The notes under the pieces were generated by a model. That model saw only the letters and a program-made list of their open reading frames with translations, was not told the DNA's origin and did no database searches. Made by a program: the position numbers and the translations under genes. A DNA stretch of 64,000 bases. Origin: Flaccisagitta enflata (Eukaryota). The DNA lies in NCBI GenBank assembly GCA_965153355.1, contig OZ231126.1, positions 37,448,001-37,512,000 of the forward strand, in the 5' to 3' direction. Below are positions 47,310-59,931 of this stretch, in pieces (the first letter of the stretch is position 1; each line of letters starts with the position of its first letter).

Positions 47310-50300
47310 CGACTTGGTAATTGAAAGCGACGGAGAAATCAAGTTTTTTCAACGGGTATTTTGATTTAAATGTGTTTTCCAAAAAGTGGAGATTCTCGAC
47401 AATAACCTCGAGAGTGAAATTCGAGTCCCACAACCATTCTTGGGGCGCCCATAACCTGTAGGAGAAAATACAGATAACCGGCTATGCGGGCCAAGACAGT
47501 GTACCTGACCTTTCAGATATTTGACCTATCCGAAACTGTTTTAGACGTTTTCATGCATAATGTGATCCTATCAACAGTACGATGAACAAAATAGAAATAA
47601 AGTCAGCCATGCATGAATGTGATTCTCACAGAGGTGCATTGACGCACCTAAGAACGGGTCGTCATTTGTACAGGATCACCTCTTTCCCAAAATAAAACTT
47701 TTGGCAGTACCAAATCATAAAAAATGATTGGTAAAACACAATTTAACACTATTTAAACCTTAAAAATACCATTTTATTGCTATATAGGGAAGAAAATCAT
47801 TGATTTTGTAATGCGACGCGATGCGAACAAAACCAAAGGCAGGGGGGGGGGCCCAAACTAATCAAACATCATAGAACTATATACATCCCTGAGTTTAACA
47901 CAACTGCGGTACCCAGAAATGAAGACTCACTGCTACAGTACGATCGGAGCAAAGACGACCTAGACAGGAGGATATATTTCAAGTATTTTATCTTTATTTG
48001 ATTCATGAAATATTCAAGCTTTATGGTAATTGAGGCAGCTCTACTTAGTTAACAATTCTCTCAAACTTCAACTTGTAAAATGACTTGAGTTTATCAAGAC
48101 TTCAATTTGGAATGTTCTAATCTTTATCATTGGATCAGGCAAAAATTTTTGGAAAAAAAATCAATTCAATTGGACCATTTTTATTGATTTTATACAGTAC
48201 ATTCCGAGCAAACCCGTCCAAAGTTGGAAGATAATTTTTGTTACTTTAATTTCATTTCTTTAGCTTTATATTTGATATCTAAGTTAGTTTAACTCCTTGA
48301 AACTATTTGAGTGTCAAAATGAATAAATCATGAAATGAAAGTCCAAGAAAACATCATTTTAGAGTGTTCTAACCTGGACCATTAGATTCAGTGGAAAATT
48401 TTATATGGTTTAAAAAAAAATCGACTCAATCAGATGATTTTTATAAGATTTAGGTCTATTTTAAGGTTTTTAACATAAGTCTAAGTTTTCTTAGACAATT
48501 TTCTTAAATAGCTGCATAACCTGTGAAAATTTTTGAATCAAAATAGTTTTTTTCTCATAAATATATAGAACTTTTAATGGTTTGGGTTAGAACACCCTCA
48601 AATGATATCTTCATGGACTTTGATTTTATAATTACCGGGTCATCAGCCTGAGATGCCGGATAATGTTAAGCTTTTACTCTGAGATGCCATATATCAGGAA
48701 TTTCTCACTGATTGTCTCTTAAAGAGTATAGATTGACATTTTATTATATCAGAATTTCATCAAAATCGGTCAAGTAGTTCAGATTTTACATGAGTTTAAG
48801 TAAAAAACTTCTTTTTTGCCACTTCTATTTTTGGAGGAGAAAATGGAGGAACCGTGTTTTTCCCAATTCTCTCATTTTGCAATGTTTTGAGCCAGAGACA
48901 CAAGATTAGTCCTAAATAAAAGATGATATGACAAATTTATGAAACTACATTAAATTTCTTTTCAAACTAGACCATTGACATGTTTCCAGCTCAAATTGTT
49001 CAAAAAAAGAAGGAAATGTGGAAATGCTCTTTTTCATTATTTTTATGGAAAATTCTGCCATTAAGAGAAAGTTAGTTTTTACTTCAAAGACTTGTAAAAT
49101 CTAAACGGCTTGACCGATTTTGATGAAATTTTGATACAAAAAATGTCAATCTATGCTTTTTAAGAGAAAATCAAAATGAAATCCAAAATGTGTGGCATCC
49201 CTGAGTAAAAGCTTAACAGAATCCGGCATCTCAGGCTGATGACCCGGTAACTTCTTTAGACACCCAAATATGTTCAAAAAATTAAGTATCCTTGAAGTAA
49301 CTTAGATACTAAATAGAACAGGTCGCCCAAGGGCAATATGTGGTCAGTGATACCCGTTGCCCTGCTTTGAGTGATTGTGAATTGGAGTGAGGGGAAGCAG
49401 GGCAGCGGCCCCGAAGGGGACGAAGTCCTGTAGAACACAGGGGGACTTTCGTTCGTCCTGCCTGAAGAAGTGGATAAGATGCTATAGAGGGCTTACTGAA
49501 GGTCTCCAAGAGCCTAAACTGAGGCCTAAGAAGGCTAATATAATGCCTCAGAATGCCAATGGGAAGCTTTAGAGGGCTGACTTGAGGCTTGAGAGAGCTG
49601 GATTAAGGCTTGAATGGTCAGAGGACTGATTTGAAGCCTGAGAGCAATAAATTGAGGCTTAGATAGCTGATTTGAGGCCTGAGAGGCCTAATTTGAGGCC
49701 TGAGAGGCCAGGTTTGAGGCCTGAGAAGCCTTATTTGATGCCTAAGAGGCCAGGTTTGAGGCCTAACAGGCTGGATTTGAGGCCCGAGAGGCCAGATTCG
49801 AGGTCTCAGAGGCCAGATTTGGGGCTTGAGGGGCCTAATGGGGGGGGGACGCACGAACGAACGAACGAACGCACGAACGGACGAACGAAAGTCCCCCTGT
49901 GTTCTACAGGACTTCGTCCCCTTCGGGGCCGCTGCCCAAAAACTAAGGTGATAAAAATGAAATAATAGAAATCTATCCTCCAGTTTTAGATGGGCAGACC
50001 TGTACATCTTGTAGTAGCGAGTAGCGCCGCTACTCGGAAGGGCTGGGTGCCTCTCGGAAGATTTAGAAGGAAGGAAGGAAGGAAGGAAAAAAGGAAGGAA
50101 GGAAGGGAGGTAAGAAGAAAAGGCGAAGGGAAAAAAAAGGTGAAAAAAAAAACAATAATAAGACCGGAAAAATAGAATAAAAGAACAAGAGAGAGAGAGA
50201 GAGAGAGAGAGAGAGACAGAGGGTGAATGAATCATAAGTTTGATGACTGTAAAAGTTCCAAAGTAAATCCAAATATTTAGAAACAGTTCCGGTGTTTGCA

Positions 50301-59300: not shown

Positions 59301-59931
59301 TGAGCTGCCTCAACCGATATTCTCCGTCAAGTTCATCTTGATTAGTCCCTTCCAGATTAACTCGTTCATCGCGCGGTTCATGGATCAGCAGTTCTTTCCT
59401 CCATCCATCTCCACGCCATGTGTTGCTATCAAAGACACCACCATCATTAGGAAAGTCTCCGGCAATGCGCCAATATGGTCTATCGCTGTGTCCCCAGCTG
59501 TGTTCCCAGTCAATTCGCCAACTTGGTCCATCGCCGCGCCATTTAGAAAAGCCGAGCCACCCTTGCATATCTTTGCGACGACTTGGTACATCCCTGCGAC
59601 GGCTTGGTTCATCGCGAAACAAATTTGGTTCGTCGAGGCGCTGATCTGGTCCATTTTGGAGCCAATTCGGTCCATTCCTAGAGGAGGAAGAGGATGCTTT
59701 TGAAGAGGAAGTCGGGGAAAGAGAAGTGGGCGAAGCGGAAGACGCGATGGAAGAGGAAGCTGGTGCGATAGTTGAGGAGGAAGAGGACGATGAGTGGTTC
59801 GGAATGGAGCGCCGTAGTTTTTTGAGCAACAATGAAGCAGAGAAGGGAGCAGCCCCAAATGCAAATCTTGGGGATACGACGAGGAAAAAACAAAAAAAGA
59901 AAATCCGATGTTGGAGCCGCTCCGCCGACAT
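47310..59931 (-). CDS. M1-family (aminopeptidase N/ERAP-like) protein, 5' five exons; catalytic exons not found
   Basis: Exons 59931-58526, 57947-57418, 52154-51985, 51554-51154 and 47455-47310 join in frame (phases 2, 1, 0, 2; ends in phase 1; ~884 codons). M1 N-domain motifs: RLKSDFVPIDYDL, FSGHVKMTL, VVLHG, WFKG..GFYYGS, ARTVFPCIDQPEYKARF, ALSNM, FAETPVMSTYLL, YPLKKLD. The N-terminus is hydrophobic. Confidence 0.88.
48635..49247. mobile_element. MITE, TA-flanked, long imperfect TIRs
   Basis: TA|CCGGGTCATCAGCCTGAGATGCCGGAT ... ATCCGGCATCTCAGGCTGATGACCCGG|TA; arms pair for ~170 bp. Confidence 0.88.
49316..49942 (-). mobile_element. Helentron-like element, family B, with ~21-bp internal repeats
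   Basis: A ~59-bp inverted repeat GGGCAGCGGCCCCGAAGGGGACGAAGTCCTGTAGAACACAGGGGGACTTTCGTTCGTCC (49400-49458 against 49879-49937), placed asymmetrically. Internal GAGGCCTGAGAGGCC repeats and (GAAC)n. Confidence 0.75.
57521..57822 (-). repeat. (AAC)n microsatellite inside aminopeptidase exon 2, encoding ~100 Asn-rich residues
   Basis: In frame between ..RRENTEH and LPLTRF..; no GT donor or AG acceptor flanks the tract. Confidence 0.85.

Follow-up and report, generated by a model that had tools for sequence, protein, structure and literature searches.

A truncated M1 metallopeptidase gene that most likely reflects an assembly artefact

The window of this study, i.e. the whole stretch of 64,000 nucleotides at C1:37,448,001-37,512,000 in which positions are counted from the first letter, carries on its minus strand five exons of an M1 aminopeptidase that break off directly before the catalytic motifs. 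The observation is correct; its most likely source is an error of assembly, and we consider it quite likely that the window copy is a false haplotype duplication of an intact gene plus a chimeric join, and probably not new biology. The assembly of this region contains fragments of alleles, patches that look unpolished and one or more joins between chromosomes, and calls of truncated, chimeric or duplicated genes there need read support. If the rearrangement should be real and expressed, it would represent a new gene caught forming through exon capture. A side lead holds under either reading, namely that the intact gene carries TYLAP, AAMEN and WLKEA where its own paralogs differ, and may have an altered substrate specificity.

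The five exons of the window and the intact gene upstream

As the first-pass annotation had claimed, a five-exon M1 N-terminal gene is present on the minus strand, and it is real: the exons have GT-AG ends, exons 3-5 give Pfam matches, and all five join into a single open frame of 884 codons (884 aa, with no stops or frameshifts), whose C-terminal residues are ...YPLKKLDFSVAFNYQV, with a phase-1 donor at 47,310. The exons are as follows, the mismatches being counted against the intact gene, which is called the parent below.

58526..59931, minus strand: exon 1; hydrophobic N-terminus, long Ser/Thr-rich stalk and start of the M1 N-domain; 71 mismatches in 1,394 aligned bases, indels frame-keeping
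57418..57947, minus strand: exon 2; M1 N-domain, including a poly-Asn insert (AAC repeat) shared by the parent; 21 mismatches in 437
51985..52154, minus strand: exon 3; TYLAPTHAR, PF17900 at E 8e-10; 2 mismatches in 170, and 170/170 identical to the C6 fragment
51154..51554, minus strand: exon 4; acidic insert; 19 mismatches in 401, and 401/401 identical to the C6 fragment
47310..47455, minus strand: exon 5; phase-1 end directly before AAMEN; 3 mismatches in 146

The hydrophobic N-terminus of exon 1 is likely a signal or anchor, and the acceptor of exon 3 was placed at 52,154 because the AG at 52,137 reads AA in the parent. In the Pfam searches, PF17900 (Peptidase_M1_N) matches exon 3 over the cut-off and exon 4 at E 3e-4, while exon 5 corresponds to positions 1-30 of Peptidase_M1 (PF01433). 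Within exon 2, at 57,520-57,820, the AAC repeat accounts for about 95 Asn of the M1 N-domain, and the parent tract there is shorter and Asn/Asp-rich. As an M1 aminopeptidase, the window copy has the N-terminal beta domain and lacks both a GAMEN-type motif and HEXXH(18)E. The absence of a downstream GAMEN or HEXXH exon, originally noticed by eye, is borne out by the searches: the six-frame motif scan of the window detected no G[AG]MEN, MEN[WYF]G or ENWG, and seven HExxH matches of which none stands in an M1 context, and the PF01433 profile and tblastn detected no M1 catalytic exon in the 150 kb downstream of the window. The reading with diverged catalytic exons downstream of the window copy is rejected, as none was found in the window or in these next 150 kb.

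The catalytic exons belong to a parent M1 metallopeptidase gene on the same strand, 100 kb upstream at C1:37,610,675-37,591,771, which has nine GT-AG exons, no stops and a product of 1,519 aa, and whose locus was picked up by the genome searches with PF01433 and PF17900 at C1:37,594 kb and 37,607 kb. The joint of its exons 5 and 6 completes AAMENWG (with G replaced by A), exon 6 terminates in HE, and exon 7, which matches PF01433 in Pfam at E 1.7e-13, supplies IAH, 18 residues and E, giving the zinc motif HEIAH-18-E with HEIAH at 955 and KE at 977-978. Exon 8 is Peptidase_M1 by ESM Atlas, and the YRKG helix is also there. Judged by their sequence, the window exons are a second copy of parent exons 1-5, and the parent would be expressed and active as a zinc peptidase. 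The first-pass suggestion that the missing exons are diverged or lie outside the window was right in that catalytic exons do exist outside it, in a complete gene copy, but these stand upstream, so they are not spliceable to 47,310 in the present layout; the proposed tBLASTn-type check for M1 exons on the scaffold likewise recovered those with AAMENWG and HEIAH-18-E, but none downstream of 47,310.

Two further remarks on the copy take another meaning beside the parent. The replacement of TQF(E/Q)P by TYLAP is present, aligned in the window copy with TDFEP of ERAP2, but it is no sign of decay or death, because the intact parent carries TYLAP too, with Ala in place of the Gln/Glu in both copies. 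The copy also does end before AAMEN, but what had looked like a stop exactly before the catalytic domain is the gene's own intron 5, a place that is not unusual, and the apparent precision is that of a mere break within this 7.5-kb intron. Between window and parent, pN/pS is 0.26 in the domain part (11 N and 12 S differences) and 0.49 overall, which fits an allele and equally a constrained paralog.

The break in intron 5 and its shuffled surroundings

The homology between window and parent extends from 60,257 to about 43,840, that is, it ends about 250 bp before the acceptor of parent exon 6. From exon 5 downstream the window is composed of the following blocks.

43826..47309, minus strand: remnant of intron 5; dense patches of private differences near 46,760-45,990 and 45,290-44,720
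43820..43848, unstranded: join; a locally repeated unit of about 20 nt, and an overlap of 6 nt with the C3 copy
31551..43825, unstranded: C3 copy; 12.3 kb, collinear with C3:98,960,079-98,972,404, 0 to 56 differences per 200-column bin
28293..31550, unstranded: repeats; a multicopy element fragment at 28,619-29,461, matching dozens of sites at 96-99%, and a satellite that recurs at C1:37,385-37,388 kb
14468..28292, unstranded: inverted block; second copy (86-94%) of C1:37,573,858-37,588,256, directly downstream of the parent
27,800-27,662 and 27,386-26,627, minus strand: two exons of an unrelated gene, with the source copy on the plus strand near C1:37,574,190

Over the 414 kb of C1 examined, only one N-run (10 N) occurs and it is far from the join, so that no scaffold gap is visible between window copy and parent. 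The intron remnant contains six A[AT]TAAA hexamers, which are common in AT-rich DNA, and JGI metagenome contigs gave no match to a 27-nt pattern taken from directly upstream of the join.

A fragment on another scaffold bears directly on the break. In exons 3-4 the stretch C6:46,270,547-46,284,578 matches the window at 571 of 571 bases, and the large indels relative to the parent are common to both. At the site corresponding to the window join this fragment has an insertion of 1.5 kb (C6:46,280,147-46,281,634), which lies in intron 5 of the window-type haplotype, has short inverted ends and TA flanks, and by inspection appears MITE-like. Past the insertion follow exons 6 and 7 and 390 of the 436 bases of exon 8, with 1, 0 and 2 mismatches to the parent, respectively. 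The window and C6 copies are one shared haplotype, which on C6 extends into exons 6-8. Rearrangement or misassembly, one of the options raised at first pass, gains support from the intron-5 break at 43,825, from the C3-derived DNA beyond it and from the same haplotype continuing on C6.

The differences among the copies are distributed in a peculiar way. In the three-way alignment of window, C6 and parent, divided into 74 bins, at least 10 private differences per 100 columns occur in 11 bins for the window and in 16 for C6, and in no bin for both, while 47 bins (window) and 41 bins (C6) are without any private difference. These noisy patches contain about 10-50 private differences per 100 columns with many short indels and alternate with perfect agreement; exon 5 of C6 sits inside one of them, and the same on-off pattern is seen for the window/C3 pair. 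Between window and parent, the differences in exons 1-2 are even, with 1-11 per 100. We read the noisy patches as probable uncorrected long-read error between polished stretches, because ordinary divergence would not alternate on and off in complementary blocks.

The surroundings of the parent are similarly shuffled. Nearly all of its 68-kb neighbourhood has a second, rearranged copy of 84-97% identity, except the 8 kb with exons 6-9, and another 30-kb neighbour block is found inverted at C1:37,392-37,424 kb. The copy numbers in the assembly are uneven as well, being two for exon 6, one for exon 9 and three for exons 3-4. A 1.08-kb foldback of 98.8% identity, placed near C1:37,517.5-37,517.9 kb within C1:37,516,450-37,519,013, has a spacer of about 400 bp between CT/AG runs and is embedded in repeats of 6.5/13 kb that include an exon-1 fragment at 37,521,029.

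Several other elements were observed in the same region. The frame of the multicopy element fragment at window 28,619-29,505 looks by eye like a LINE-type endonuclease, and an ORF at C1:37,540-37,543 kb like a retrotransposon reverse transcriptase/RNase H. Both copies of the inverted block have an exon, at window about 16,695 (plus strand) and C1:37,586,035 (minus strand), which we take to resemble a Maf-type bZIP region. Tandem arrays fill window 1-4,100 and 6,600-8,100; one has a unit of about 650 bp and extends from C1:37,439.6 kb into the window, the other a 29/58-bp unit that C6 has as well. Window 61,000-64,000 holds repeat-rich ORFs and, just upstream of exon 1, a 27-bp tandem unit; related copies occur at C1:37,524 kb and C3:98,942-98,950 kb. 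Outside the region, at C8:36,760-36,789 kb, a different M1 gene is accompanied by an inverted second copy at a distance of 26 kb; the two share an identical HEXXH exon and differ in a patchy manner (0-53 differences per 100 columns), possibly through the same sort of artefact.

Public reads and the weighing of explanations

Three public DNA runs (X1, X2 and X3) and one polyA RNA run (X24), i.e. 4 of the 24 listed runs, were compared with window 42,720-51,700; the read tables list 40 of the 231 window/parent differences, the counts for X1 and X2 being incomplete. At the 11 listed sites in or beside exon 4, which include 10 of its 19 differences, each DNA run displays a different mosaic of window and parent letters, most sites showing one letter only. 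In X1, one 498-nt contig carries the parent letter at every one of the 11 sites and shows only 11 differences in all, therefore the window letter stands at the other nine exon-4 sites. In X2 the parent letter is found at three sites, the window letter at seven and both at one, and in X3 the parent letter at seven and the window letter at three, with one site uncovered. None of the three DNA runs shows the window letters at 51,462, 51,476 and 51,479, and two of the three lack the parent letters at 51,201, 51,454 and 51,471, so no fixed paralog-specific sites exist among those listed. Window and parent letters are distributed like those of alleles at a single locus; fixed paralogs would give both letters at each site. 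At 48,427-48,598, X1 further splits into two arms with depths of 59 and 67, and exons 4 and 5 each have one contig, of depth 118 and 129 respectively; contig depth is not equal to copy number. All of the eight listed window-private letters are replaced by the C6/parent letter in the public runs, at sites in high-depth repeat DNA which carry little weight. Among the matches listed (24 of more than 259,000 pieces) no contig bridges 43,825, and a gap there proves nothing. For RNA, 12.2 million reads of X24 (about 6% of the run) at 92% likeness contribute depth to repeat bins alone, and neither copy has a read on exons 4-5.

The explanation that we prefer is a false duplication with a chimeric join. 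A single intact M1 metallopeptidase gene would exist in two haplotypes, and the window copy would be the 5' half of its second allele, left uncollapsed by the assembler at an allele divergence of about 5% here and broken into pieces of about 12-16 kb. In intron 5 it would have been joined to C3 DNA via a chimeric read or a false overlap, and we infer that the join at 43,825 is artificial; further pieces of the haplotype would lie scattered close by (C1:37.39-37.42 Mb, window 14.5-28.3 kb, C1:37.52 Mb) as well as on C6. The animal itself would splice exon 5 to the AAMEN exon, and the product would be the zinc peptidase of 1,519 aa that carries HEXXH(18)E. Against an artefact, the intact frames and splice sites, the gapless join region and the pN/pS of 0.26 are compatible with a real private rearrangement, and a variant private to the sequenced animal need not occur in public samples.

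Such a rearrangement, namely a real, recent and polymorphic structural variant by which one chromosome of the sequenced animal has a partial duplication broken in intron 5, is in our judgement unlikely. The locus would then be a pseudogene fragment or encode an 890-aa read-through product (…NYQVGKIYMK stop) without the zinc site. It accords with the intact frames, the absence of a gap near the join, and the short overlap and locally repeated unit there, which are like those of repair-mediated rearrangements; the six A[AT]TAAA hexamers would suit it too, though they are common in AT-rich DNA. It leaves unexplained, however, the disjoint on-off patches of differences and the reach of the same haplotype into exons 6-8 on C6, and it requires several more rearrangements within 150 kb. 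Very improbable is the further case that the locus is also transcribed as a young polymorphic gene, in which a cassette of signal, stalk and M1 N-domain, cut before the zinc site and either ending in intron 5 (890 aa) or spliced to a Gln/His-rich tail (1,183 aa), would act as a non-catalytic decoy of the parent.

The tail in question comes from the phase-1 exon at 27,800 proposed in the first-pass annotation. This exon exists, and a splice from 47,310 would leave the frame open over 1,183 aa. A real chimeric gene, with exon 5 spliced over 19.5 kb to 27,800 and a disordered, Gln/His-rich tail attached to the M1 N-domain, could appeal to that open frame and to a donor and an acceptor that are each without their own partner in the present layout, but we regard it as scarcely credible: the path spans three joins of unrelated blocks (43,825; 31,551; about 28,300) which all need to be real, the exon at 27,800 is opposite in strand to the peptidase in the parent arrangement, a phase match has a 1-in-3 chance, and RNA support is nil in a comparison that covered 42,720-51,700 only, with the acceptor outside. 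Hardly more credit is due to a fixed, catalytically dead paralog under selection, in which a secreted or anchored M1 N-domain would serve as decoy or scaffold. Its 884 codons without stop or frameshift, the pN/pS of 0.26 (domain part) and 0.49 (overall), and the precedent of a mammalian non-catalytic truncated TRH-DE isoform described in the consulted part of PMC7225337 are in its favour; the allele pattern in the public DNA, where no fixed paralog-specific sites are found among those listed, is not, and neither is the RNA run, whose 12.2 million reads include none on exons 4-5, a weak point as parent reads would have matched too. The option of a dead or truncated paralog is accordingly unlikely in view of the allele-like segregation in three public DNA runs and the same-haplotype fragment that reaches the catalytic exons.

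Comparison with known systems

Compared with the M1 (gluzincin) enzymes of the APN/ERAP/TRH-DE type (PF17900, PF01433), the window copy shares the N-domain and the first residues of the catalytic domain and is without the zinc site, whereas the parent shares AAMENWG, HEIAH-18-E and the YRKG helix, with ERAP2 and APN as its closest PDB matches. The parent differs from the usual M1 enzymes by a stalk of about 490 aa, by poly-Asn and acidic inserts, and by an exon 9 with no Pfam ERAP1_C match. With two paralogs, at C5:41,392.9-41,400.5 kb and C8:3,736.4-3,748.2 kb, it forms a divergent M1 subfamily with a common exon layout and a C-terminal region unrecognised by Pfam ERAP1_C; their exon 9 identity to the parent is 40% (C5) and 36% (C8).

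The parent reads TYLAP, AAMEN and WLKEA where these two paralogs read TQFQS, GAMEN and WLQEG. The Gln/Glu position of TQFxP is Q or E in the C5 and C8 paralogs and in the nearest database relatives, AAMEN occurs in none of the motifs listed for the 35 matches of a search of 50% representatives, and the site before the third zinc ligand varies in ERAP2 chains as well, being K or N. Located around the pocket that binds the amino terminus, the three changes may give the parent an altered specificity for the substrate N-terminus. The TRH-degrading enzyme is distinguished by a small residue in TQFxP and a Lys before the third zinc ligand, together with AAMEN. We presume that TYLAP, AAMEN and WLKEA of the parent resemble this signature. 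The literature search returned no paper on the TRH-DE signature residues or on AAMEN. For TRH-DE (pyroglutamyl peptidase II), the part of PMC7225337 at hand states a two-residue signature of the catalytic domain and leaves the residues unnamed. The same part describes TRH-DE*, a truncated, dominant-negative and non-hydrolysing form of pyroglutamyl peptidase II (PMC7225337). This form and the read-through product of the window would both be shortened M1 forms arising from an exon-intron boundary, an analogy that applies only if the product is real; TRH-DE* results from alternative splicing of a single gene at exon 14 (PMC7225337, same part), whereas the window copy is a 5' genomic copy ending before the zinc motif.

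For the join itself, the portion of the review PMC9984789 used here describes amplification or library chimeras in long reads, which are alike in their short overlap (6 nt at the join, 5-8 nt in the review) and in the foldback and the 6.5/13-kb upstream repeats of this region. Such chimeras usually link segments less than 10 kb apart (PMC9984789), and because of this distance they would be a better match for the foldback than for the C1-C3 join. Heterotype false duplication that leads to false gene gain or false chimeric gain, as presented in the sections of PMC9516828 available to us, is diagnosed by read depth, k-mer multiplicity and discordant reads, while the likeness here rests on sequence copies and public reads. 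Unlike it, the window and parent copies have no scaffold gap between them. The likeness consists in a partial second copy with allele-level divergence on the same scaffold, and further in fragments on another scaffold, sequence errors and exons placed beside those of an unrelated gene (PMC9516828).
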